A program made the translations under genes and the position numbers. A stretch of DNA of 20,759 nucleotides from an uncultured bacterium. GTDB lineage: Bacteria; Abyssobacteria; SURF-5. The stretch covers positions 21,425 through 42,183 of the forward strand of contig CAZEBC010000014.1 of the NCBI GenBank assembly GCA_964510165.1. The letters run 5' to 3'. Numbering within the stretch: position 1 is the stretch's first letter; the number at the start of each line of letters is the position of its first letter. The notes below the pieces were generated by a model. That model saw only the letters and a list, made by a program, of their open reading frames with translations, was not told the origin of the DNA and ran no database searches. Shown one piece after another: positions 1-19,269 of the stretch.

Positions 1-1262
1 GCGAGGTTGCCCCCGACCCTGGCTTCGCCGCGAAGTTTTCCGAACTTCTTGTGCAAATTGAGAATTGTGGCGGTCAGCTCGAGCTCGTCGCCGGGATAGA
101 CCGGCTTCCTAAACTTCGTCTTGTCCAAGGCCACCATATACGGCAATTTTCCCATGCCGCGCGTCCTTGACAAGACCAATACCGAACCGACCTGCGCCAT
201 CGCCTCGATTATCAGCACGCCCGGCATGATGGGGTTTCCCGGGATGTGTCCCTTGAAGAACTCCTCGTTGCCGGTGAGCCGCTTGATCCCGATGGCGCGC
301 TTGTCGTCAAGCCTTGTGATCTCATCCAGGAACAGGAACGGCGGCCGGTGCGGGATTATCTGGCAAATCCGTTCCGTATCAAGCGTGTCCTGCCCGGCAT
401 CCGGTGACGGTAGAGTCGCCCTTGCGAGTTGCCCCCAAATCTGAGCCTTGAGCTTTTTCACGAATTCCACGTGAGCGGAGTGACCGGCCTTCACTGCCAA
501 TATATGGCCGACCAGCGGCGCTCCCAAGAGCGCCAGATCGCCAATCAGGTCGAGCACCTTATGTCGAACGAACTCATCCTCAAAACGGAGCGCCTCGTTC
601 AAGATTCCCTCATCGCCGATGACAATGGCATTTTCCAGACTGCCGCCCTTTATGAGTCCCTGCGACTTCAGAAGTTCAACATCCTGCAAGAAGCAGAATG
701 TGCGCGCCGGAGCTATCTCGCGCGTAAACTTTTCAGGCTCGATCACGAAAGAGTGGAACTGGGTTCCAAGCGCTGGGTGTCCGTACTCGATCATGTATGA
801 AATCTTAAACCGGTCCGAGGGAATCGCCAGAACCGTAATGCCTCCCTGCTCAAACGCCACCGGCTCGGTCACCACGGCCTCCCTTCTCGGAGCGTCCTGC
901 TCGAGAAGGCCGGAGTCCGCCAAGACATCGACGAAAGGCAGCGCGCTGCCGTCGCCGACGGGCGCCTCGCTCGTATCCAGCTCCGCATACACGTTATCTA
1001 TTCCGAGACCCGCGAGCGCGCCGAGGATGTGCTCCACGGTGAGGACCTTCACCCCGTTGATCCCTATCGTCGTGCCGCGCGCGACATCGGTGACGTGGTC
1101 GGCGTCAGCCTTGATCCGGGGCTGTTCCGGCAGATCGGTTCGTATGAAAACCACTCCCGTATCGGGTGGAGCGGGCTTAAAGGTGATCGTGGTCTTCTTT
1201 CCGGTATGAAGCCCCACACCGGAGAACGATTTCTCTTTCTTAATCGTTTTCTGCTTTCGCAT
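1..1262 (-). CDS. lpxC: Bifunctional UDP-3-O-acyl-GlcNAc deacetylase / 3-hydroxyacyl-ACP dehydratase (LpxC-FabZ fusion), 3' end truncated by the window
   Basis: Not in the ORF track because there is no stop in the window. Manual translation from ATG at 1262 gives MRKQKTIKKEKSFSGVGLHTG...TVEHILGAL...ARTFCF...HKVLDLIGDL...KAGHSAH (LpxC Zn and catalytic motifs). After a short linker it continues in frame into IPHRPPFLFLD...GHIPGNPIMPGVLIIEAMAQ...KFRKPVYPGD (FabZ). Confidence 0.95.
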   Translation of the reverse strand, partial: MRKQKTIKKEKSFSGVGLHTGKKTTITFKPAPPDTGVVFIRTDLPEQPRIKADADHVTDVARGTTIGINGVKVLTVEHILGALAGLGIDNVYAELDTSEAPVGDGSALPFVDVLADSGLLEQDAPRREAVVTEPVAFEQGGITVLAIPSDRFKISYMIEYGHPALGTQFHSFVIEPEKFTREIAPARTFCFLQDVELLKSQGLIKGGSLENAIVIGDEGILNEALRFEDEFVRHKVLDLIGDLALLGAPLVGHILAVKAGHSAHVEFVKKLKAQIWGQLARATLPSPDAGQDTLDTERICQIIPHRPPFLFLDEITRLDDKRAIGIKRLTGNEEFFKGHIPGNPIMPGVLIIEAMAQVGSVLVLSRTRGMGKLPYMVALDKTKFRKPVYPGDELELTATILNLHKKFGKLRGEARVGGNL

Positions 1263-2271
1263 CTCCGGGTCCCTTTTCTTCGCGCACACGTTTTTCGAGA
1301 TCACGGAACTCGCGCACCAGTGAAGGCAGTCGGTTCAGACTTGCACACATTCGCAACCACTTCTCATGGTCCACGACGGGAAAGCCCGAGACCACCTGCC
1401 CCGGCTCGATGTCGCGATCGACTCCCGCCCGCGCCGCGACGATCGCGCCCTCGCCCACGGTCACTCCGTCAAGCACGCTGGCCTGGCCGGCGATGGTGAC
1501 GCCATCGCCAATTCTGCAACGCGCTCCCACGCTTGCATGAGAAACAATGATGCAGTTTCTGCCGATGATCGCGTCGCTCCCGATGTGCACAAGATTGTCG
1601 ATCTTCGTGCCTTTGCCGATCGTGGTCGCGCCGTCACGGGCGGCATCGATCGTCACGTTGGCGCCGACCTCGACGTCGTCCTCGATTATCACTGGCCTGC
1701 TTGAGCCGCCGTTGAAACGCATTTCCTCGGCCTGCGACCCGACCACGGCCCCTATGTGGATGATCACGTCGTTTCCAATGCAGGCATCGCTGCAAATAAC
1801 GACTCTGGGATAGATGATGCAGTTCTTGCCTATCTCGGCGCCGCTGCCGACGCATACTCCCGCATACAGCATCGAGCCCGCCCCGATCTTGCAGCGGTCT
1901 TCCACCACCGAGCCCGCATGAATTGCCACATTCTCGCCCAGGAAAACATCGTGTCCCAGTATCGAGGTCGGATGAATTCCCTTGGGCGTCGGCAGCTCGA
2001 CCGCGAACAGCTTCAGGACCCGAGTGAACGCCAGGTACGGATGGTCGGTCCGAATCAGGCTGGGGCCGCCTCCCGGCGCATCGTGATCCACTATCACGGC
2101 TGAGGCTTTGCTTGCAGGCAGCAGAGGCAGATACTTCGGGTTGGCCAGAAAGGTTATATCGCCCGGTCCGGCATCCTTGATGCCCGCGACTCCGGTAATC
2201 AGGGCGTCCGGGTCGCCTTCCAGCGTTCCGCCGACGAGCCGCGCGATTTCGCCGAGCGTGATCTGCATCAT
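1240..2271 (-). CDS. lpxD: LpxD-family UDP-3-O-acylglucosamine N-acyltransferase homologue with a degenerate active site
   Basis: N-terminal uridine-binding domain (GDITFLANPKY, DHPYLAF), hexapeptide left-handed beta-helix repeats (IEDDVEVGANVTID, IGKGTKIDNLV) and C-terminal helix. Lies in the canonical skp-lpxD-lpxC/fabZ position. The catalytic QIAHN motif is replaced by HIGSD. Confidence 0.9.
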   Translation of the reverse strand: MMQITLGEIARLVGGTLEGDPDALITGVAGIKDAGPGDITFLANPKYLPLLPASKASAVIVDHDAPGGGPSLIRTDHPYLAFTRVLKLFAVELPTPKGIHPTSILGHDVFLGENVAIHAGSVVEDRCKIGAGSMLYAGVCVGSGAEIGKNCIIYPRVVICSDACIGNDVIIHIGAVVGSQAEEMRFNGGSSRPVIIEDDVEVGANVTIDAARDGATTIGKGTKIDNLVHIGSDAIIGRNCIIVSHASVGARCRIGDGVTIAGQASVLDGVTVGEGAIVAARAGVDRDIEPGQVVSGFPVVDHEKWLRMCASLNRLPSLVREFRDLEKRVREEKGPGDAKAEND

Positions 2272-2302
2272 TCAGTCACTCGGGCGAGGTTCGCCGTAGC
2301 GA

Positions 2303-2848
2303 CTACTCGCCTTGCTTCTCCGTGATTTCCTTTATAACAGTGTCAGTCAGGTCAAAGTTGGGAGAGCCATACAGCAGAATCCGTCGTTCGAATATCATGC
2401 TGTAACCGTCCCGTTCGCCCACTCTTCTGACTGTTTTCGCGATATCGGGAAGCAGCCTTCTGAGCAGCTTGTTCTCCTCGACGTCGCGATAACGCTGCGC
2501 GCCTTCCGAGTAGACCTTCAAATCGTCAACCTTATCGCGGATAACTTTTTCCTGCTCTCTGCCGCGTTCCTCGGACCAGATGACGCGGTTCGCCTTCAGT
2601 TCTTCCTCGAGCTGGTCGATCTCGGCGCGACGCCGCTCGATTTCGGCCTGTCTCTTCTCCAGCTCTTTGCTCAATTGTTCGTATTCCGGCGTTTGTTTGG
2701 CGACCGCCTGCACAACCCTGTCGAGGTCAAGGTATCCGAGCTTGACCTGTTCGGCAGCATTGGAGATGCGAGGAGTCAACGCCAGCAGGAACAAGATTCC
2801 CAATGAGACCACTGCAACATGGATTCCACGAGTCTGTGTGGTGAGCAT
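2303..2848 (-). CDS. skp: OmpH/Skp family periplasmic chaperone
   Basis: Signal peptide, KLGYLDLDRV N-terminal strand, long charged coiled coil, and C-terminal GYSMIF...LLYGSPNFDLTDTVI. GGAGG RBS upstream. Confidence 0.9.
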   Translation of the reverse strand: MLTTQTRGIHVAVVSLGILFLLALTPRISNAAEQVKLGYLDLDRVVQAVAKQTPEYEQLSKELEKRQAEIERRRAEIDQLEEELKANRVIWSEERGREQEKVIRDKVDDLKVYSEGAQRYRDVEENKLLRRLLPDIAKTVRRVGERDGYSMIFERRILLYGSPNFDLTDTVIKEITEKQGE

Positions 2849-2898
2849 TACACCCTCCGTTTCCCGGAACTGAGTTCACTGTCAGTTATGCGAAAAAG

Positions 2899-3498
2899 CT
2901 ACCTTGCGTTCAGGCTTTGGATAATCGAATCGGAAACATCCATGACAGCGTCCGAAGAAGTGTTCACGTACAGTATTTCGGGCATGCCGCTGTCAAATAT
3001 GACCGTTAACCCGTAGCCGCGGCCCGGCTCCAATGCCGCTTCACGGACATCGATAAGAAGACCTTCCACAGCCTCGGTTTCGCGTTCGCGCTTGCGCGCG
3101 GCCTCTTTCTCGGCTATGGCCTTGAGCTCTTTCCTCTTGCGCTCTATCTCATCCATCGGCTGCCGTTTTCGCAGGAACCAGAACCTCTGGCTTTCCAGTT
3201 CCTGTTCGAGCCTGGCAACTTCCGCCTGTTTCTGCCGGTACCCGTCGCCGGTCTTGTACCGCTCCAGTTCTTCTTTCACGCGCCCGGTTCGCCAGTACCC
3301 GTTCAGGATTCGGTCAACGTCTGCGACACCGACTTTAGTTTCGGCTCTTGGTTGTTCCTCGCGCGCCGCAGAACCCTGACAGAGCAAGAGCCACAGCAGG
3401 GACCCTGCGCATATGCGAACGGCTGCCCGATGTAAATTGAAATGATGCACGAGTCGAACGGATTTATGCGCTCTGCTTATAACACAACGCTTGGTCAA
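2899..3498 (-). CDS. Second OmpH/Skp-like protein (start codon uncertain)
   Basis: Hydrophobic signal segment, KVGVADVDRIL, coiled coil, and C-terminal YGLTVIFDS...ILYVN...DVSDSIIQSL. Immediately downstream of bamA. Confidence 0.8.
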   Translation of the reverse strand: MTKRCVISRAHKSVRLVHHFNLHRAAVRICAGSLLWLLLCQGSAAREEQPRAETKVGVADVDRILNGYWRTGRVKEELERYKTGDGYRQKQAEVARLEQELESQRFWFLRKRQPMDEIERKRKELKAIAEKEAARKRERETEAVEGLLIDVREAALEPGRGYGLTVIFDSGMPEILYVNTSSDAVMDVSDSIIQSLNAR

Positions 3499-3534
3499 GA
3501 GGCAGGATCAAGAGGCAATTCACTTTTCAAATGT

Positions 3535-3563
3535 ATTATAGCAGGAGTGTTTCGGCTTTGCAA
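3535..3563 (-). promoter_or_regulatory. Sigma70-type promoter for skp-like/skp/lpxD/lpxC-fabZ
   Basis: Minus strand reads TTGCAA-17 nt-TATAAT, with an extended -10 (TGcTATAAT), in the bamA/skp-like intergenic gap. Confidence 0.7.
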
Positions 3564-3576
3564 GTGCATTCTTCAC

Positions 3577-5862
3577 TCAGAAGCTGATGCCGGTCGTGAA
3601 ATGGACCTGGCCGTTGCCCTGGTCGTCGTCGGGGTTGAGCGGATACCCGAAGTCGATCCTTACGGGGCCAACCGGGGTCTGAAGCCCCATTCCCAGGCCC
3701 ACGGCCGTGTTTACCTTGCTCCGCCCGAATTCATCTACTTCCCTCCATACTTGACCAAAGTCAAAGAATGCGTATGCCTTGATGATCTCGATCAAGGGAT
3801 ATGACAACTCCAGTGTGCCCTCAAGCTTGGTCTTGCCCCCGATGGGGTCTCCGTTTTCGCGGGGGCCCACCTCCCGGTAGTCGTACCCGCGGACCGAATT
3901 CGAACCGCCCGCGAAGAACCGGTCGAAAAGTGGGACGATGTCGGAGTCACCGTACTCTTCGGCCAGGCCGCCCTCGAGGCGGGTCATGAGGACGAACTTC
4001 TCGCCGAGCGGGCGGTACCAGCGCGATTCGCCCACCAACTTGACGAAATCGGTTTCGGCCCCGAGCGGGCCGCCCGCGAATTCCAGCGCGGCGGTGTATC
4101 TGTGTCCGGTTTTCGGGTCGATGTAGCTGTCGCGCGTATCATTGGTGAAGCTCAGCGTCATGCTGCTCTTCGTGCGAGTTCCTTCCTCATCTCTTATGAT
4201 CTGCGGAGCGTCCGGCTCGACGTCGGATATGTCATACTCGGAGATCGTATAGCCGAGTCCGAGTGAACTGTATTCAGTGATCTTCTTGCCGATCCGCACG
4301 CCCGTCCCGATGCTCTGCTGCTCGTACTCGTCGTATTCGCGGTCCACAAAAAAGAGGTCGTACCCTGCGGCGAAGGGATAGCCGAGGAAGTATGGGTCCG
4401 TAATGCCCAGCCGGTATTCGCTCAGCAGAGTTCCGGGCATCAGGACCACGTTGAACTTTTGGCCCGCCCCTGTGAACGTGGGCGGATTGAGAAGGTCGAA
4501 GTTGTTCTGTGACACCTGAATCTGTCCGATGAGCGCGTCGTTAGAGCTGTAGCCCACACCGAAGTTGAAGGTCCCCGTTTTCTGCTCCTCGACCTCGAAT
4601 ATGAGGTCGCGATTCTTGGGATCGGCGGTCGGCCCGGTGTCGATATAGACGTCCTTGAAGAACTGAGTATTCAGCAGTTTCTGGCGACTGCGCCGGATCT
4701 TGCTTCCATCGAATCGTTCTCCCGGCGAGATTGTGAGCTCGCGCCGGATCACCTCATCCTTCGTTTTGACGTTGCCCTTGACATCCACCTTGGCCACGTA
4801 TACCAGCTCATTCTCGGTCACGCTATGAGTTATCTTGATCTCCCTGCTCTCCCTGTCTATGGAAGAACGCGGCCGCACCTTTGCCAGGATGTAACCCTGG
4901 TCGGAATAGAAGTTCTGCATCTCCAGGGCGTCTTGTTCGACCTGATCGCGGTTGTAGTAGCTGCCCGGCTCGCTCTTGATCAAGGAGAGGAGGCGCTCAT
5001 TGTCGAACACCTCGTTGCCCTCGACCTCGATTGACTCGGTGAAATACTGCGCGCCTTCCTCGACTGTCAGGACAAGCCTCACGCGTTCGCCCTCGTGATA
5101 GAACTCGGTGTCAGCGTCGGCGACGCGGGCGTCAATGTAACCGTGGTTGGCGTAAAGTCTCTTGATCCTCTCCAGGTCTTCTTCGAACACGCTTCTGTCG
5201 AACAGAGTGCCAAACCACAGGAACCGCGCCTTCAATTTCATGACTTTCCTGATCGCACTATCAGAGAGAGCCTGATTGCCCTCGATCACAATCTTGCGCA
5301 CTCTGGCCTTTGGCCCCTCGAAGATTTCGTACACGACTTCGACCTCGGTCGGGCTGGTCTCCCGGAAACTGGAGATGACGGTGGTCCCGGAGTATCCCTT
5401 TGTCTTGTAGAGCTGGCGGATCGCCTCGATATCCTTCTCGAGCGCGCCGGGAGTATACGTATCGCCCCGTCTGAGCGACACCACTTGACGGATGTCCTGC
5501 TCCTTGACCTTGTCGTTGCCAAGGATGAGCACTTCCCGAATCATCTTGCGTTCCGTGACGATGTAGGTGACCGCCACGCCGCCTGCCACGGGTGATACGT
5601 CAACCTTGATGTCGGAGAAATAGCCCAGAGAGAAGAGCCGCGTGATGTCTCTCTGAACGTCGGTCCTCAGGAAGGGTTGTCCCTCGCGCACGCGAAGCTG
5701 GGCCCGGATGAGTTGGGTGCTGGCAATCTGGTTCCCCTCTATCTTTACCGAGACGACAGGGGAACCCTCCTCAACCTGGGCCATACCCGCGGACGGGAGG
5801 AAAAGTAATACGGCCACGACAACCACGCATGGGAGCAGCAAACGGGGTTTGACTGTTCTCAA
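3577..5862 (-). CDS. bamA: Outer membrane protein assembly factor BamA
   Basis: 761 aa. Signal peptide, POTRA repeats (V/I-x-I-x-GN, GYF, RREL), barrel motifs FFAGGSNSVRGY and TPVGPVRIDFGYP, terminal Phe. Confidence 0.97.
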   Translation of the reverse strand: MRTVKPRLLLPCVVVVAVLLFLPSAGMAQVEEGSPVVSVKIEGNQIASTQLIRAQLRVREGQPFLRTDVQRDITRLFSLGYFSDIKVDVSPVAGGVAVTYIVTERKMIREVLILGNDKVKEQDIRQVVSLRRGDTYTPGALEKDIEAIRQLYKTKGYSGTTVISSFRETSPTEVEVVYEIFEGPKARVRKIVIEGNQALSDSAIRKVMKLKARFLWFGTLFDRSVFEEDLERIKRLYANHGYIDARVADADTEFYHEGERVRLVLTVEEGAQYFTESIEVEGNEVFDNERLLSLIKSEPGSYYNRDQVEQDALEMQNFYSDQGYILAKVRPRSSIDRESREIKITHSVTENELVYVAKVDVKGNVKTKDEVIRRELTISPGERFDGSKIRRSRQKLLNTQFFKDVYIDTGPTADPKNRDLIFEVEEQKTGTFNFGVGYSSNDALIGQIQVSQNNFDLLNPPTFTGAGQKFNVVLMPGTLLSEYRLGITDPYFLGYPFAAGYDLFFVDREYDEYEQQSIGTGVRIGKKITEYSSLGLGYTISEYDISDVEPDAPQIIRDEEGTRTKSSMTLSFTNDTRDSYIDPKTGHRYTAALEFAGGPLGAETDFVKLVGESRWYRPLGEKFVLMTRLEGGLAEEYGDSDIVPLFDRFFAGGSNSVRGYDYREVGPRENGDPIGGKTKLEGTLELSYPLIEIIKAYAFFDFGQVWREVDEFGRSKVNTAVGLGMGLQTPVGPVRIDFGYPLNPDDDQGNGQVHFTTGISF

Positions 5863-5947: not shown

Positions 5948-8431
5948 CTAGTTCTTCAACTGATGTTCGGGTTCTTCGACCGGCTTCGGGACGCTCTTGA
6001 CCACAAATCGGAGTTTCGCGCCCTTCGCATCCGGCTCAACGTACACGCGAGAGCCGTCGGGAATATTGCCACGCAGGATTTCCTCGGAAAGGGGGTCCTC
6101 CACGTGGAGCTGCACAGCTCGACGAAGTGGACGCGCGCCATAGGCGGGGTCATAACCCACTCTGACGAGGAATTTTTTGGCCTCTTCGGAGAACTCCAGA
6201 GTCAAGTCCCTGTCTTTCAAGTTTCTGCAGCTTTCCTTGAGCAGGAGTTCGACGATCTTCTTCAGGTCGGCGTCGGTCAGCGAATGGAAGACGATTATCT
6301 CATCGATCCGGTTCAGGAATTCCGGATTGAAGATTCGCTTGGTCTCCGCCAGAACCTTGTCTTTCATGGCCTGGTAACCGACCTCGCCCGTGGCCCGCTG
6401 GAACCCGAGGGTCTTGCCGGTGCTGATTTCCCGCGTTCCCACGTTAGAGGTCATTATAACAACTGTGTTCCGAAAGTCAACTGTCCGGCCGGTTGAGTCG
6501 GTAAGCCGGCCGTCTTCGAGCACCTGCAAGAGCGTGTCGAACACGTCGGGGTGCGCCTTTTCTATCTCGTCCAGCAGCACCACCGAGTAGGGGCGTCTCC
6601 TGACCTTTTCGCTCAGTTGACCGCCTTCGTTGTAACCCACGTATCCGGGAGGTGCGCCCACGAGGCGTGACACGGTGAACTTTTCCGAGTACTCGGACAT
6701 GTCGATCCGGACGAGCGCATTTTCATCGCCGAACAGGAACTCGGCCAGCGCCTTGGCCATCTCGGTCTTGCCTACTCCGGTCGGTCCCAGAAACAGGAAC
6801 GAACCGACGGGCCGTTTGGGATTCTTGAGGCCGGCGCGCGAGCGCTGAATCGCCCGGGTGAGCGCCTCGATGCCCTGGTCCTGGCCGACAATACGCTTGT
6901 GCAGTTCCTCGTGCATCTTGAGCAGTTTGTCCGACTCGCTTTGCTCCATCCGCGTGACCGGGACGCCCGTCCACTTGGAGACGATGTAGGCGATGTCCTC
7001 GGCGCTGACGGTGTAGCTGAAGTTTTCGCGCGTCTTCTCCCAATTGCGCTGCTCGCGTTCCAGCTTTTCCTTCAACTGGCGCTCTTTGTCGCGAAGCGCG
7101 GCGGCTTTCTCGAATTCCTGCGACTCGATGGCCTCTTCTTTCTCTTTTGTAACCTTCTCTATCTCGTCTTCGATGTCCTTGAGACCGAGCGGGCGGGTCG
7201 TGCTCTTGAGCCTTGCCCGCGAGCACGCCTCGTCGATGACGTCGATCGCCTTATCAGGCAAATACCGGTCGGTTATGTACTGGTTGGACAGCCTGGCTGC
7301 CGCTACGATAGCCTCGTCGGATATCCTCACGCGGTGATGCGCCTCGTATTTGTCTCTGAGGCCGTGGATGATCTCGATGGTATCGTCCACCGACGGCGCT
7401 TCCACCATGATCGACTGGAACCGCCGCGCCAATGCGGCGTCTTTCTCAATATATTTCCGGTACTCCTCGAGCGTGGTGGCGCCTATGCACTGCAGTTCGC
7501 CGCGCGCAAGCGCGGGCTTGAGCATATTGGAGGCATCGACCGCACCCTCGGCGGCGCCTGCGCCGACGATGGTGTGCAACTCATCTATGAACATTATTAT
7601 GTTGTCGGCCTTGCGGATTTCCTTCATGACCGCCTTCAGCCGTTCCTCAAACTGTCCGCGATATTTCGTGCCCGCCACCAAGCCTGCAAGGTCCAGCGTG
7701 AGCACCCGTCGGTTTGCGAGCAGGTCTGGAATGTTCTTCTTGTGAACTATGGCTTGGGCCAGTCCTTCGACGATTGCGGTCTTGCCAACACCCGCCTCCC
7801 CGATGAGCACGGGGTTGTTCTTGGTGCGCCGGCTCAGAATCTGGATGACGCGTTCGATCTCGGCCTCGCGCCCGATGACAGGGTCAAGTTTGTCTTCGCG
7901 GGCAAGCTCAGTGAGGTCGCGTCCGAAGGCGTCAAGCGCGGGCGTCTGCGTCTTCTTGGCCTCGGCCGAGGCCGACGAGGAGAACTTGCTTGTGGGACCA
8001 CCCAGAAGCTTAACTATTTCGCGCTGAACGCGCTCCACGTCAACCTTCATGTTTTCGAGGACGTGGGCTGCAATGCCCTCCCCTTCTTTTATGAGTCCAA
8101 GCAGCAGATGTTCGGTGCCTATATAGTTGTGGCCGAACTTGCGAGCTTCCTCGACCGCGAGTTCGAGCACCTTTTTGGCCTGAGGATTGAACGGGATTTC
8201 GCCGACCGAGACGGTAGACGGCCCCTGCTCGACCAGCTTTTCGACCTCGAGCCTCAGCGTTTTCAAGTCGGCCCCCAGATTGGCCAGGGCCGTCGCCGCG
8301 ATGCCTTCCCCCTCCTTGACAAGTCCAAGAAGCAGATGCTCGGTCCCTATGTAATCATGATTGAATCGCATGGCTTCTTCGCGCGCGAGTTGAATCACTT
8401 TTCGCACGCGCTCCGTGAATCGATCAAACAT
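5948..8431 (-). CDS. clpC: ATP-dependent Clp protease ATP-binding subunit ClpC
   Basis: [12 protein letters not shown] start, two Clp-N repeats ([11 protein letters not shown] twice), Walker A motifs GEAGVGKT and GPTGVGKT, short UVR M-domain ([10 protein letters not shown]), ClpP-docking LGF loop. Directly downstream of mcsB. Confidence 0.97.
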
Positions 8432-8437
8432 GCGATA

Positions 8438-9493
8438 TCACCCCTCTCCGTATTTCAATGTTTCTTTGACTAATTTTGCGCGCTCCATGTCCCGGGCGAG
8501 CGGCTCCATGTGGTTGGGGAACCGCTTCTGCAAATGCGCAGGCTGCATTTCTATGAGCAGCGAGTCTACGATTTCCGGATTAATGCCCGGAACCATTCCG
8601 CAATAAATACCCAGCCTGATGTGGGAGAGCATTTCCATCGCCTCCCGGGTGCTCAGGAACTTGGCGCCCGAGAGTATTCCGATCGCTCTGCCCACCTTAT
8701 CCTCGATGAGCAGCTTGTTGTTCTTCAGCAAGTCGTCGCGCGCCCGCCTTTCCTGCTCGACCAGTTCGGTCGCCAGCTTCTCGGTCATCTCCACTATCTC
8801 TTCCTCCGACCTGCCGAGCGTGAACTGGTTGGATATCTGGAAATAATCGCCAAGCATTTCAGAGCCTTCGCCGTGCAGACCCCGTATGGCCAACTGCATC
8901 TTGCTGGCGCCTTGCAGGATATTGACGATGCGCTTGGATATGATGAGCGCCGGCAGATGTATCATGACCGAGGCCCTGAGACCGGTGCCCGGATTGGAGA
9001 TACAGGCGGTCAGATATCCCCACGGCTCCTCGAAGGCGAAATCGAGATGCTTGTCGAGCTCGTCGTCTATGTCGCTGAGTTCGTGCCACGCCTCAGAGAG
9101 CAGAAGACCGGAACGCAAGACTTGCATCCGCAGATGGTCCTCCTCGTTGACCATGAGGCTTATGCGTTCCGAAGCGTCAACGACAACGCCTTTCTCACCG
9201 CTGCTCTGGGCGAGTTCCCGGCTGATGAGAAACCGTTCCATGAGGAACTGGCGGTCGAGCAGGCTCATATCCTTGAAACTGTAAAACTTGGCGCTCTTCA
9301 GGCGCGAACACCGTCCAACACAACTGCGCACCAGGGATACGATTTCTCGAAGCTGCTGGTCGCTGCACCGGTTGGAAAAGGGAAACCCTTTGAAGTTCCT
9401 GGCCAGCCGGATGCGGCTGCTGTATACGATGTCAGAATCCGGCCCTTTTGTCTTGAGCCAATGCCCGACGTTTGACACCATCTGTTCGAACAT
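8438..9493 (-). CDS. mcsB: Protein arginine kinase McsB
   Basis: SSRIRLARN, NEEDHLR, GTGLRASVMIHLP, RGLHGEGS, FQISNQFTLG and C-terminal RDxxRA. Lies between mcsA and clpC. Confidence 0.95.
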   Translation of the reverse strand: MFEQMVSNVGHWLKTKGPDSDIVYSSRIRLARNFKGFPFSNRCSDQQLREIVSLVRSCVGRCSRLKSAKFYSFKDMSLLDRQFLMERFLISRELAQSSGEKGVVVDASERISLMVNEEDHLRMQVLRSGLLLSEAWHELSDIDDELDKHLDFAFEEPWGYLTACISNPGTGLRASVMIHLPALIISKRIVNILQGASKMQLAIRGLHGEGSEMLGDYFQISNQFTLGRSEEEIVEMTEKLATELVEQERRARDDLLKNNKLLIEDKVGRAIGILSGAKFLSTREAMEMLSHIRLGIYCGMVPGINPEIVDSLLIEMQPAHLQKRFPNHMEPLARDMERAKLVKETLKYGEG

Positions 9494-9524: not shown

Positions 9525-10016
9525 CTACATGCTTTCGTACTGCTTTATTTTGTCCCTGAGCCTGGCCGCCTGCTCGTAGTCCTCCGAGCGGATGGCCTTT
9601 TGCAGGTCTTCCTGAAGCCGCCTGAGCTCGACTTTCAAGTCAAGACTTCTGGCGACATGGCGGGGATGTTTGCCCCGATGCTCGGCTGCGCCGTGTGCCT
9701 TTGCGAGTATGGGCTGGAGCACCTCGGCCAGCGCAGTATAACACGTGCTGCAACCAAGCCGTCCCTTGGCTCGAAACTGTTCCTCGGTCATCCCGCATTC
9801 GGGACACTTCCGCGTTTTCTGGACGGCCTTCGGTTTCTTCTTGACACGCTCCAGCGACTCGGTCACTTCGACGGCCGCGTCGCTCGTGATTGCACCGGCA
9901 GCAAACTCGCGCTCCTTATAGCATTCCTGACAAAGGTGGATTTCCGTCACCGCGTTATTGATTATCTCTTTCAGGCGTACCGTGGCCACCCTGTCCTTGC
10001 AGATATGACAAATCAC
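9525..10016 (-). CDS. mcsA: McsA (zinc-binding activator of McsB, UVR domain)
   Basis: Four CxxC motifs (CHIC, CQEC, CPEC, CSTC), HRGKHP, and C-terminal UVR domain EDYEQAARLRD. Confidence 0.93.
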   Translation of the reverse strand: MICHICKDRVATVRLKEIINNAVTEIHLCQECYKEREFAAGAITSDAAVEVTESLERVKKKPKAVQKTRKCPECGMTEEQFRAKGRLGCSTCYTALAEVLQPILAKAHGAAEHRGKHPRHVARSLDLKVELRRLQEDLQKAIRSEDYEQAARLRDKIKQYESM

Positions 10017-16558: not shown

Positions 16559-16671
16559 TTGGCACGCATGGCTCGTGTGGATCGGGGGGTTGTCCCGCCG
16601 AAGAGACATCCGGTTTCTTTCATGTGCAATGGAAGCCGGACACGCCTTGCTCACCTAGGGGGGATGAGGAC

Positions 16672-19269
16672 ATGAGCGTTCGTCACGCGAAACAACCACT
16701 GACACCGGAACGGAAGGCTTATCTCGACCGGCTGGTCGAGCGCGCCAAGCTTGCCGCCGCCGAGTTCTCACAGTTCTCGCAGGAACAGGTGGACGCGGTC
16801 GCAAAGGCCATGGTGATGGCGGGCCTTCGCAACGCCAAGAAACTCGCGCGGCTCGCGGTCGATGAGAGCAAGCTCGGCATCTTCGAGGACAAGGTCCTCA
16901 AGAATTTCGTCGCGACCGAGTTCGTCTGGAATCACATCAAGGACAAGCGCACCGTCGGCGTGATACGCGAGTATCCCGAGCGCAACCTGATGGAGGTGGC
17001 CGAGCCCATCGGCGTCATCCTCTCTATCACGCCCATCACCAATCCGACCGGCACCGTTCTGTTCAAGTGCATCACGTGTCTCAAGACGCGCAACACGCTC
17101 ATCTTCTCGCCGCATTTCCGTACAGCCAAATGCTGCCTCGAGTCGGCCCGCGTCATGGCTGAAGCCGCCGCCCGGGCGGGCGCTCCCGAGGGAGTCATCT
17201 CATGCATCGAGGAGCCTACCGTCGAGGATACGCAGTATCTGTTCAGACACCCTGACATTCAACTGGTTGACGCGACCGGCGGCACGAGCCTGGTGAAGGC
17301 CGCTTACAGCACGGGCAAGCCTGCACTCGGCGTAGGCGCGGGCAACACTCCGTGTTATCTTCACAAGAGCGCCGACATAGACATGGCGGTCGTGGATATC
17401 ATCGTTTCGAAGACATTCGACAACGGAACGGTGTGCGCGTCTGAACAGACGATTGCGATCGACAGAGAGATATATGACGAGGTAATCGAGAAATTCGCGG
17501 GACTCGGCGCGCATATCGCCAGCGACGATGAAGTCCGCAGACTCGAGCGAACCGTCATCCATCAGGAAACCGGGATGATGCATCCGCTCGCCGTCGGCCA
17601 GAGCGCGCAGGACATCGCGAGGCAGTGCGGCATCGAGATGTCCCCCCAGGCGCGCCTCATCATCGCACCGCTCAAGGGCGTCGGGCCCGGCCATCCGCTT
17701 TCCGTCGAAAAGCTGTTTCCGGTGCTCGGCGTGATACCCGTCAACTCCGAGGAAGACGCGATAAATGTGTGCCTGGACATCAGCTACAGCGGCGGACTCG
17801 GCCACACCGCCTCCATATTCGCAACCGATGAAGACGTCATCAAGCGGTTCGCCGCGAATCTGAACGCGGGCCGCATCGTCGTCAATTCGCCTGCGACAAT
17901 AGGCGGACTCGGCGGCGTGTACAACGATCTCTCGCCCACGTTCTCATTCGGCTGCGGCACAGGAGGCGGCAACATCACGATGGACAACCTGAATATTTAC
18001 CATTACATGAACATAAAGCGCGTGGCGCGCCGTACGCCGGGCAACGCATGGTTCCGCCTCCCCAACCAGATCTATTTCAATTTCAACTCCCTCGAAAATC
18101 TGCGAGGCATCAACTCGGAAACCACGGTCATCATTAGCACAAAGGGCGCCGAGAAGCGAGGCCACATTGACATTGTGCGCTCGTTCCTGAACCAGAGCAT
18201 CCATGTGCATGCGTTCTCGGAGGTCGAACCCGAACCGACGCTCGCCACCGTCCTCAACGGCGTCCGCGTCCTCAACAATTATCGGCCCGACCACATCATC
18301 GCCATCGGCGGCGGCTCCGTGATTGACGCCGCCAAGGCGATGCGTCTGTTCTACGAACACCCGGAAATCAAGTTCGAGGAACTCGCGCTGCCGTTCCTCG
18401 ACCCGCGCAAACGCGTGACCGAATACCCCGCGCCTTCGCCCGACCGGCCTCGCCTCGTGGCCGTGCCGACCACCAGCGGCACCGGCGCCGAGGTGACTCC
18501 GTTCGCCGTCATCACCGATTGCGAAACCCGCCGCAAGATAATGCTGAGCGATTACTCGCTTGTGCCCGACATGGCCATAGTCGATCCGACGCTCGTAATG
18601 CACCTGCCGCCCGCCGTCACCGTGGACACCGGCATGGATGTGCTCACGCATGCGCTCGAGGCGCATGTCTCCATCGCCGCGTCGCGCTACACCGACTCGC
18701 TCACGCTCCAGGCGATACGGCTTGTGTTCAATTACCTTCCGCGCGCCTTCAACGACCCGAGCGATTACGAGGCCCGCGAGAATATGCACAACGCATCGTG
18801 CATCGCAGGGATTGCCATAAGCAATGCGTTCGTCGGGGTCAATCACGCGCTCGCCCACAGCCTCGGGGCGACGTTCAATATCCCGCATGGAAGAGCAAAC
18901 GGTGTGCTTCTGCCTTACACCGTCAAATACAACGCCTCGACGCCGACCAAATTCATGCCGCATCCCAACATCAAAGCCTACGTGGCCGACAAGAAATACG
19001 CCGAGGCCGCGACCTTTGCGGGACTGAAAGGCGAGAGCACTTCCGAAAAGGTGAACGCGCTGATCGAGGCAATCCTTGAGCTTCTGAAAACGTGCAACGT
19101 GCCGACTACGATCAAGGGGCTGGGGATTTCCGAAAAGGAATTTCAGAGAGCGCTGCCAGATCTCATCGACAAGGCGTTCGACGACCCGAGCAGCCGCTCC
19201 AACCCGCGCTACCCGATGGTCGACGAAATAGACGAGCTTTTCCAGCGCGCATACTTCGGAAAACTATAA
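16672..19269 (+). CDS. adhE: Bifunctional acetaldehyde-CoA/alcohol dehydrogenase AdhE
   Basis: ATG at 16672 with GAGG RBS, 865 aa. ALDH domain: GVGAGNTP, KTFDNGTVCASEQ. Linker: FGCGTGGGN. Fe-ADH domain: GGGSVIDAAK, PTTSGTGAE, DVLTHALE, HALAH, HGRAN. Confidence 0.96.
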   Translation: MSVRHAKQPLTPERKAYLDRLVERAKLAAAEFSQFSQEQVDAVAKAMVMAGLRNAKKLARLAVDESKLGIFEDKVLKNFVATEFVWNHIKDKRTVGVIREYPERNLMEVAEPIGVILSITPITNPTGTVLFKCITCLKTRNTLIFSPHFRTAKCCLESARVMAEAAARAGAPEGVISCIEEPTVEDTQYLFRHPDIQLVDATGGTSLVKAAYSTGKPALGVGAGNTPCYLHKSADIDMAVVDIIVSKTFDNGTVCASEQTIAIDREIYDEVIEKFAGLGAHIASDDEVRRLERTVIHQETGMMHPLAVGQSAQDIARQCGIEMSPQARLIIAPLKGVGPGHPLSVEKLFPVLGVIPVNSEEDAINVCLDISYSGGLGHTASIFATDEDVIKRFAANLNAGRIVVNSPATIGGLGGVYNDLSPTFSFGCGTGGGNITMDNLNIYHYMNIKRVARRTPGNAWFRLPNQIYFNFNSLENLRGINSETTVIISTKGAEKRGHIDIVRSFLNQSIHVHAFSEVEPEPTLATVLNGVRVLNNYRPDHIIAIGGGSVIDAAKAMRLFYEHPEIKFEELALPFLDPRKRVTEYPAPSPDRPRLVAVPTTSGTGAEVTPFAVITDCETRRKIMLSDYSLVPDMAIVDPTLVMHLPPAVTVDTGMDVLTHALEAHVSIAASRYTDSLTLQAIRLVFNYLPRAFNDPSDYEARENMHNASCIAGIAISNAFVGVNHALAHSLGATFNIPHGRANGVLLPYTVKYNASTPTKFMPHPNIKAYVADKKYAEAATFAGLKGESTSEKVNALIEAILELLKTCNVPTTIKGLGISEKEFQRALPDLIDKAFDDPSSRSNPRYPMVDEIDELFQRAYFGKL

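Follow-up and report, generated by a model that had tools for sequence, protein, structure and literature searches.

A candidate two-gene LpxD active site in Abyssobacteria: complementary residue losses in a long and a short paralogue

LpxD catalyses an essential step of lipid A synthesis, has been studied intensively and serves as a target for antibiotics, and to our knowledge it has been described only as a homotrimer. The stretch of DNA analysed here, 20,759 nucleotides from an uncultured bacterium of the Abyssobacteria (SURF-5; contig CAZEBC010000014.1 of assembly GCA_964510165.1, positions 21,425 to 42,183 of the forward strand) and referred to below as the window, carries at the usual place of lpxD an unbroken gene whose product lacks the catalytic histidine. 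What is the role of an LpxD homologue that has kept its locus and its reading frame and lost its active-site residues? The answer preferred here, with a probability of roughly 0.65, is that this long protein (L) and a short paralogue encoded on another contig of the same genome (S) together constitute an LpxD that is obligately heteromeric and has a single composite active site.

Loss of the catalytic face in the long paralogue

The following parts of the L gene are needed for the argument; numbers of the type H239 refer to LpxD of E. coli K-12, and 'close relatives' are the 45 L sequences of the alignment described below. AF2 denotes AlphaFold2 and pLDDT the predicted local distance difference test.

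1240..2271, minus strand: L-type gene, the long His-less LpxD paralogue of 343 amino acids; intact open reading frame without stops
1987..2271, minus strand: uridine-binding domain, retained; residues 1-95 (PF04613 77.4 bits; pLDDT 89-96)
2131..2157, minus strand: ITFLANPKY, of which Phe41, Asn44 and Tyr47, numbered as in E. coli, stack on uracil and bind the diphosphate (roles as described in PMC6286764)
1690..1737, minus strand: degenerate, shorter coil-5 loop SQAEEMRFNGGSSRPV in place of GxDGFG...KIPQxG; residues 179-194, pLDDT 54
1594..1599, minus strand: Asp225-Asn226 (E. coli D232-N233), retained; 45/45 of the long clade and 20/20 of all long forms tabulated
1585..1587, minus strand: His229, aligned with Q236 of E. 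coli; H34, Y6, Q5 of 45 close relatives
1576..1578, minus strand: Ser232 in place of the catalytic base, His239; long clade S24, A14, G4, K1, C1 of 45
1522..1524, minus strand: Ala250 at the oxyanion-hole Gly257; G257 in 151/151 canonical, 0/45 long and 39/39 short sequences
1465..1467, minus strand: Gly269 at the second histidine, H276; H276 in 151/151 canonical, 0/45 long and 39/39 short sequences
1276..1368, minus strand: C-terminal helix, retained; residues 302-332, DSSP helix in the AF2 model, within the predicted trimer interface

Membership of L in the LpxD family is clear. The protein passes both curated models (NF002060 with 288.5 bits, cut-off 207; TIGR01853 with 264.1 bits, cut-off 242.5), PF04613, the N-terminal domain of LpxD, matches residues 22-88 with 77.4 bits beside a Hexapep match, and phmmer aligned L end to end with the solved enzymes of P. 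aeruginosa, C. trachomatis and E. coli (E 2.7e-48 to 6.7e-40). The architecture of LpxD, with uridine-binding domain, left-handed beta-helix and C-terminal helix, is complete. In the AF2 monomer model, with a pLDDT of 81.4 overall and of 89-96 per ten-residue block over residues 1-90, the 11 best structural matches were all LpxD chains (Z 22.1-23.4, 318-331 residues aligned, model residues 1-330), with a high root-mean-square deviation (rmsd) despite Z scores of 22-23 that probably stems from the orientation of the domains in the monomer model. The top 25 Foldseek matches were likewise all LpxD, but with a poor superposition (TM score about 0.33, rmsd about 16 A). The isolated uridine domain matched the uridine diphosphate (UDP)-binding N-domain of MurE and MurF (Z 11.5-11.8, rmsd 2.0-2.1). 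A preliminary description of the gene had called it full length, free of breaks, canonically placed and still equipped with ITFLANPKY and the C-terminal helix, and the reading frame, domain and model evidence agrees with this.

Residue losses were counted in an alignment of 151 canonical LpxD, 45 close relatives of L and 39 short paralogues. H239, N240, G257 and H276 are each present in 151/151 canonical sequences, in 0/45 close relatives of L and in 39/39 short paralogues, and the loop residues D181, G182, F183 and G184 in 150-151/151 canonical, 0/45 long and 39/39 short sequences. L has Asp233 at N240 and an alanine at R217 ('TIDAA'), and in the phmmer alignment to the P. aeruginosa and C. 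trachomatis enzymes 'kidnlvHigSd' stands opposite 'kidnlvQiaHq'. The two positions that dock the acyl carrier protein (ACP) in E. coli, R293 and R314, are basic in S and acidic or hydrophobic in L: at R293 canonical LpxD has K in 138/151, S has K32 and R7 of 39 and L has E30 and D6 of 45, and at R314 canonical LpxD has K in 128 of 151, S has K24 and R5 and L has leucine in 45/45. On the uridine side the long clade retains F41, which all 151 canonical sequences also have, in 45/45, N44 in 44/45 and Y47 in 41/45, and K46 is intact in L. Every detail that the preliminary description had listed, among them the missing catalytic histidine, substrate loop and second histidine and TIDAA, proved correct on alignment to structures and family models. 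As H239, N240, G257 and H276 are each found in 151/151 canonical sequences and in none of the 45 close relatives, the pattern of losses is a fixed clade character and not an effect of chance or sequencing error. From these losses, L by itself is predicted to be inactive.

Are these the marks of a pseudogene in progress? Many active-site residues have been lost, as would be expected of a decaying duplicate. All 45 L protein clusters (56-100% identity) carry the losses, however, while the next 75 clusters (45-50%; Omnitrophota and others by source name) are all canonical, and the nine remaining genomes of the window's family, like the single genome of the sister family, all have the His-less long form as well. 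The close relatives bear the source names 'Candidatus Abyssubacteria/Abyssobacteria'. The frame is intact in the 45 clusters and in 14 genomes, 61 alignment columns are invariant among the 45 L sequences, and the ratio of nonsynonymous to synonymous substitution rates (dN/dS; NG86, Nei-Gojobori) lies at 0.10-0.23 in L and at 0.08-0.13 in S; the two closest L pairs have dS values of 0.72 and 1.08 and are hence unsaturated. Because the losses are common to all 45 clusters and dN/dS is 0.10-0.23, L is not decaying. Decay has next to no probability left and, with the 61 invariant columns and a clade that spans deep lineages, is regarded as refuted. L has dispensed with its catalytic residues and yet, by codon comparison, is held under purifying selection, which also bears out the earlier remark that the changes do not look like random decay. 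The check proposed there gave relatives that share the loss at dN/dS below 1, with no histidine at the 239-equivalent in any of the 45.

Alternatively, L could be a rewired acyltransferase, active alone, in which another base such as His229 or Asp268, beside the lost second histidine, has taken over. His229 does lie three residues ahead of the lost histidine, and Asp268 (E. coli position 275) is conserved in 45/45 of the close clade. Both positions vary in the distant L-types, where R, M, F, G, N or Q stands at the Q236 position and P, D, E, S, K or R at 275, and no polar residue on that face of L is invariant across L-types. In addition, the losses extend beyond the base to the oxyanion glycine, the loop of coil 5 and the two basic residues for ACP docking, and this rewiring is highly improbable. 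The idea of a relocated His229 in the preliminary description falls with it (H34, Y6, Q5 of 45 in the close clade). Some canonical LpxD carry a histidine at the Q236 position beside the catalytic one.

A short paralogue with the complementary residues

The preliminary description had proposed looking in the genome for a second lpxD with an intact QIAHN motif. The genome of the window is 97% complete (4.17 Mb), and a TIGR01853 search of it returned L (263.5 bits) and one further gene on contig C29 (240 bits, over model positions 90-322 only), which encodes an intact QIGHN. No third LpxD was found in this genome, the next TIGR01853 match reaching 43 bits, and PF04613 matched the window gene only, S being devoid of a uridine-binding domain.

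Contig C29, 70-894, minus strand: S-type gene; likely ATG start (MLRS...), 259 amino acids, preceded by the ribosome-binding site AGGAG

S scores 260.7 bits on NF002060, above the cut-off of 207, and 238.6 bits on TIGR01853, below the cut-off of 242.5. It carries GSDGFGF...HKIPHLG, TIDRA, NLVQIGHNV, VAGST and VNH, which is every motif missing from L. Its AF2 model begins with about 30 unstructured residues (1-30, pLDDT 30-39), followed by a confident beta-helix and C-terminal helix, and its best eight structural matches are LpxD chains over residues 92-299 (Z 20.6-21.6). The 38 sister clusters of S are 242-282 amino acids long (55-69% identity) and none has PF04613; canonical full-length LpxD follow at 53% identity or less.

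The meaning of this split is suggested by the solved enzymes, in which the substrates bind in a cleft between subunits (PMC6286764). One chain supplies H247/Q248/H284/Q244 (E. coli H239/Q240/H276/Q236), the amide of G257 and F183 of the coil-5 loop, and the adjacent chain supplies F43/N46/Y49 of the uridine-binding domain (E. coli F41/N44/Y47) and D240 (E. coli D232), as described in PMC6286764. The same source reports for E. coli that H239A, at the base, lowers kcat almost 1000-fold, that H276A lowers it 32-fold and that F41A raises Km 29-fold. By alignment, L retains only the adjacent-chain set and S only the first-chain set, the same split as in the solved chain assignment.

The partition was also seen in an unbiased scan. 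Among the 151 canonical sequences 70 columns are at least 95% invariant, 59 of them in the beta-helix and C-terminal domain. Of these 59, 22 are kept in both proteins, 13 are lost in L and kept in S (D181, G182, F183, G184, K194, Q197, R217, H239, N240, V241, G257, S258 and H276), and 5 are kept in L and lost in S (155, 173, 208, 230 and 269), while none is lost in both, a zero overlap that for the 70 columns is not significant alone (about 1.5 expected, P about 0.17). All 11 invariant columns of the uridine domain are kept in L. The weight of the comparison lies on the match of the lost sets with the known chain assignment and not on the zero overlap. At D232 the short paralogues are relaxed (D27, H8 and E4 of 39), compared with D232 in 151/151 canonical sequences and 45/45 L.

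More distant lineages repeat the pattern. In a table of 20 L-types and 9 S-types, the L-types keep F41, Y47, H173, E208, K230, D232, N233, G269 and H310 in 20/20; N240 and G257 are absent from all 20, and H239 and H276 from 19/20 each. The S-types keep D181, F183, K194, R217, H239, N240, G257, S258, H276 and K293 in 9/9, D232 in 3/9 and N233 in 6/9, and none of H173, E208, K230, G269 or H310. In distant S-types D232-N233 has turned into GC, GP, GA or QN and all residues of the catalytic face have stayed.

From this partition we infer the association, the stoichiometry and the activity of the pair as follows. L and S would assemble into a mixed left-handed-beta-helix trimer. L, as the non-catalytic subunit, would donate its uridine-binding domain, Asp232 (E. 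coli numbering) and the neighbouring face, and S would donate the base, the oxyanion hole, the second histidine, the loop of coil 5 and the residues that dock ACP. A complete site would form only at the interface at which the catalytic face of S meets the uridine face of L, and this single site would N-acylate UDP-3-O-acyl-glucosamine (UDP-3-O-acyl-GlcN). Among the interpretations in the preliminary description, a non-catalytic subunit in a heterotrimer with a second LpxD gains from the complementary S in the genome; a relocated histidine and a bypass of LpxD do not.

A complex of two S and one L was modelled. It scored 0.93 in all three runs, the best of three controls 0.00, and the pLDDT of the partner was 87; the mark is reached by 116/157 solved complexes and 2/215 mismatched pairs, and the runs share at least 80% of contacts. 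In the model the interface residues of L include Y154, H172, E201, K223, D225, N226, G262 and Q263, which correspond to residues that L kept and S lost, a predicted geometry that fits the heterotrimer hypothesis. The pairs with the least expected error join residues 173, 204, 205, 226 and 227 of L to 113, 148, 150, 170 and 172 of that S copy whose coil-5 loop (116-134) touches L. The degenerate face of L (176, 207, 229) meets the other S copy in the model.

Distribution and origin of the pair

L was present in 14 genomes, 11 of the class of the window and three others (G041, G042 and G175), which together represent four deep lineages. S was found in 12/14 of the L genomes and L in 12/12 of the S genomes, and a canonical LpxD was not found in 12/14 L genomes, among them that of the window. 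G042 encodes L and an S of 274 amino acids on one 2.56-Mb contig and has no canonical LpxD, and G041 has L, an S of 266 amino acids and, as a third copy, an LpxD that looks canonical.

A profile built from the 45 L sequences was searched against 1.84 billion representatives. The entire close clade is covered by one representative (612 bits), and eleven further L representatives were among the best 150 matches. These eleven have kept F41 and D232 and lost the loop and G257, and ten are also without H239. The eleventh, P0321, has a histidine at 239 (IDHDV) without loop, G257 or H276, and is possibly an intermediate or a reversion. A scan for the uridine motif with one genome per species kept 80 loci, of which 77 were canonical, one was cut by a contig end and at least two were L-type.

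A further 290 genomes were searched blind for the family, with inspection of the 13 that gave at least two LpxD matches and of the 20 whose single match was weakest. Only G175 among these had either form, an S-like gene without uridine domain together with an L-type and no canonical copy, and the other 12 multi-match genomes had two full-length catalytic copies each. H239, N240 and G257 are present, as far as the contigs reach, in all 17 single-copy genomes scoring as low as L-types and in three others. No lone L or lone S was found in this inspected subset. In G180, contigs C16 and C63 each gave an LpxD match, the two being equal in score and in coordinate span, probably from a contig duplicated in the assembly.

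All 19 L-types in the trees form one clade (Shimodaira-Hasegawa-like approximate likelihood ratio test, 99). Quick trees placed the S-types in two groups within canonical LpxD on a weak backbone. A tree uniting all S-types was better by 38.6 log-likelihood units and was not rejected (p of the approximately unbiased (AU) test 0.85), and the same held for a tree uniting L and S, which was better by 42.9 units (p-AU 0.905). A single duplication followed by complementary loss is compatible with these trees, and long-branch attraction could favour the same topologies. Within the family of the window the resolved parts of the L tree and the S tree are congruent.

The main rival to a heteromeric LpxD is that S, as a homotrimer without uridine domain, is the working LpxD, and that L forms a separate non-catalytic homotrimer that binds UDP-acyl-GlcN or, for example, LpxC-FabZ as a regulator, sensor or scaffold. 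The intact uridine domain of L would suit such a role, as would the listed start of LpxC-FabZ inside the end of the L gene. An S homotrimer would nevertheless lack otherwise invariant residues, since D232 remains in 3/9 S-types and H173, E208, K230 and G269, kept in canonical LpxD and in L, are gone. It would also leave unexplained why L keeps exactly what S has lost and why S was never found without L (12/12 S genomes). This rival is therefore judged unlikely.

Several observations weigh against an obligate composite enzyme of L and S and have to be set beside those that favour it. S retains every residue of the catalytic face and might work alone, and LpxA works without a uridine-binding domain. 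For E. coli F41A, PMC6286764 gives a Km for the acceptor only 29-fold higher, which also leaves room for activity of S alone. The good score of the mixed trimer may only reflect its likeness to solved LpxD homotrimers, and the model would indicate likeness, not binding. L was found without S in two genomes, G003 (77% complete) and G008 (95% complete, 570 contigs). G010 and G041 also hold a canonical-looking full-length LpxD, so that the pair is not the sole LpxD everywhere. The sample of 290 genomes is small and the species scan gives minimum counts, and genomes with a lone L or S may exist. Finally, L arose once, so that its residue pattern cannot be counted as independently repeated in each lineage, and to this is added the non-significance of the zero overlap noted above.

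Locus, lipid A pathway and control of S

The composite enzyme of L and S would have to serve lipid A synthesis, and the surroundings of L are of interest in this respect.

3..1304, minus strand: LpxC-FabZ fusion open reading frame directly downstream of L (PF03331 343 bits, PF07977 83.5 bits)
2303..2848 and 2899..3498, minus strand: two tandem Skp/OmpH genes upstream of L (PF03938 85.7 and 44.5 bits)
3577..5862, minus strand: BamA (POTRA and Omp85)

L occupies the ancestral bamA-skp-lpxD-(lpxC)fabZ-lpxA locus. The listed GTG start of LpxC-FabZ (1304) gives an overlap of 65 bases with L (1240-1304), and this frame runs on past the start of the window. In G042 and G175 the gene order around the long form is as in the window (Omp85/OmpH - L - LpxC-FabA), with an LpxC-FabZ-type fusion following the L-type gene. 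S and the extra canonical copies lie away from the ancestral locus, S being near sugar-nucleotide genes in G175 and G042.

The genome of the window also encodes LpxA, LpxC, LpxB, LpxK and WaaA, and an LpxD activity is therefore needed. That L and S act outside lipid A, or that lipid A synthesis bypasses the LpxD step, is very unlikely. The position of the S genes outside the lipid A cluster and a GnnA-like dehydrogenase by lpxA, which hints at a modified sugar backbone, would fit this alternative; against it stand L at the ancestral lpxD position in the window, G042 and G175, the presence of these five other enzymes, the 260.7 bits of S on the LpxD subfamily model (cut-off 207) and the lack of any other LpxD candidate in the genome of the window. 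The bypass entertained in the preliminary description is not needed with a catalytically complete paralogue at hand.

The dehydrogenase is a Gfo/Idh/MocA oxidoreductase between lpxA and lpxB (L004:276-1229, minus strand), with a best match to NF040723, UDP-N-acetylglucosamine 3-dehydrogenase, at 232.8 bits, below the cut-off of 450; a GnnA-like enzyme would point to a lipid A backbone of the GlcN3N type. LpxA, just outside the start of the window, looks canonical (…HIAHE…). A triple LpxC-FabZ-LpxA fusion was considered and rejected, as the frame of 676-686 amino acids is false and results from a run of N between fabZ and lpxA (L004 1294-3324, contig C14).

In the family of the window, production of S may be subject to regulation. 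Each of the 8 family genomes with S has the gene behind two regulatory genes, one for a histidine kinase with OmpA-like, Cache, HAMP and HisKA domains and one for a sigma-54 activator of the NtrC type, and a -24/-12 element of sigma-54 type, TGGYAY-N5-TTGCY, lies upstream of S in 8/8 loci. In the genome of the window it reads TGGCAT-AATTG-TTGCT and is found about 70 bases before the ATG of S; the genome as a whole (4.17 Mb) holds 64 copies of the motif, equal to 0.0035 per 450 bases, and there are two rpoN genes. Upstream of S in G010, G041, G042 and G175 the motif was not found, and it is for this reason a feature of the family and not of the core system. On contig C29 the activator and the kinase with its OmpA-like periplasmic domain precede S at 895-4831 (locus L049). 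In other family genomes metallopeptidase-like, MoxR-type AAA and VWA genes come after S, and the contig of the window's own genome ends just past S. Perhaps, in this family, S is made on demand through sigma-54 and an envelope-sensing two-component system with the OmpA-domain kinase and L constitutively with LpxC-FabZ and LpxA, so that an obligate heterotrimeric LpxD would also control flux; this combined proposal is possible and more doubtful than the heteromer itself.

Other genes of the window were noted in passing. The second of the tandem Skp/OmpH paralogues is far more divergent than the first (44.5 against 85.7 bits). Adjoining bamA and all on the minus strand are ClpC (5948-8431), an McsB-type ATP:guanido phosphotransferase (8438-9493) and a small McsA-like protein with UVR motif (9525-10016). 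A protein-arginine-kinase quality-control module of this ClpC/McsB/McsA type is known mainly from Firmicutes, and the host of the window is a diderm. An AdhE-type bifunctional aldehyde/alcohol dehydrogenase of 881 amino acids is encoded at 16624-19269 on the plus strand.

Compared with the canonical homotrimeric enzymes of E. coli, C. trachomatis and P. aeruginosa (PDB 3eh0, 2iu8, 3pmo, 4ihf), L shares family, three-domain fold and locus, S shares the beta-helix and C-terminal helix, and the same geometry of an inter-subunit site is assumed. The difference is that in the canonical case one gene provides both faces and each trimer has three sites, whereas here each gene provides one face, so that a homotrimer of either protein would be without a complete site and a mixed trimer would have one. 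The LpxD1 and LpxD2 of Francisella and Leptospira are reportedly both full-length and catalytically complete, are employed alternatively for acyl chains of different length, and are not complementary halves. They resemble the present case in having two lpxD paralogues per genome with differentially regulated copies (compare PMC3545938). The closest analogy to L and S, as far as an analogy can be drawn, appears to be the gamma-carbonic-anhydrase heterotrimer CA1/CA2/CA2L of plant mitochondrial complex I, also a left-handed-beta-helix trimer with sites at its interfaces, in which paralogous subunits have lost catalytic residues so that no more than one of three interfaces can be complete (PMC7447434). 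It differs, by the account in that source, as a eukaryotic zinc carbonic anhydrase in a membrane complex, without domain deletion and with its own activity unproven (PMC7447434). Constructive neutral evolution, in which by complementary or compensatory degeneration a homomer becomes an obligate heteromer of duplicates, each with a partial loss, offers a further likeness; what PMC10888846 and PMC11066126 present are general models and experiments. The papers searched gave no link of LpxD, or of any Raetz-pathway enzyme, with heteromers of paralogues, and for LpxD none with heterotrimers or pseudoenzymes, and the Abyssubacteria genome paper makes no mention of LpxD or lipid A (PMC6121073).

If true, an LpxD active site made from two genes would be a clean bacterial case of a homomer that has become an obligate heteromer by complementary loss. 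The retention of residues in L and S would then sort them by chain, with E. coli positions 155, 173, 208, 230, 269, 270 and 310 as predicted additions to the uridine side. Automatic annotation names both genes as the same enzyme, neither of which is likely complete, and this affects metabolic reconstructions of these candidate phyla. Should S indeed be produced on demand, it would constitute a control point of lipopolysaccharide (LPS) synthesis unlike the control through LpxC proteolysis in Proteobacteria.

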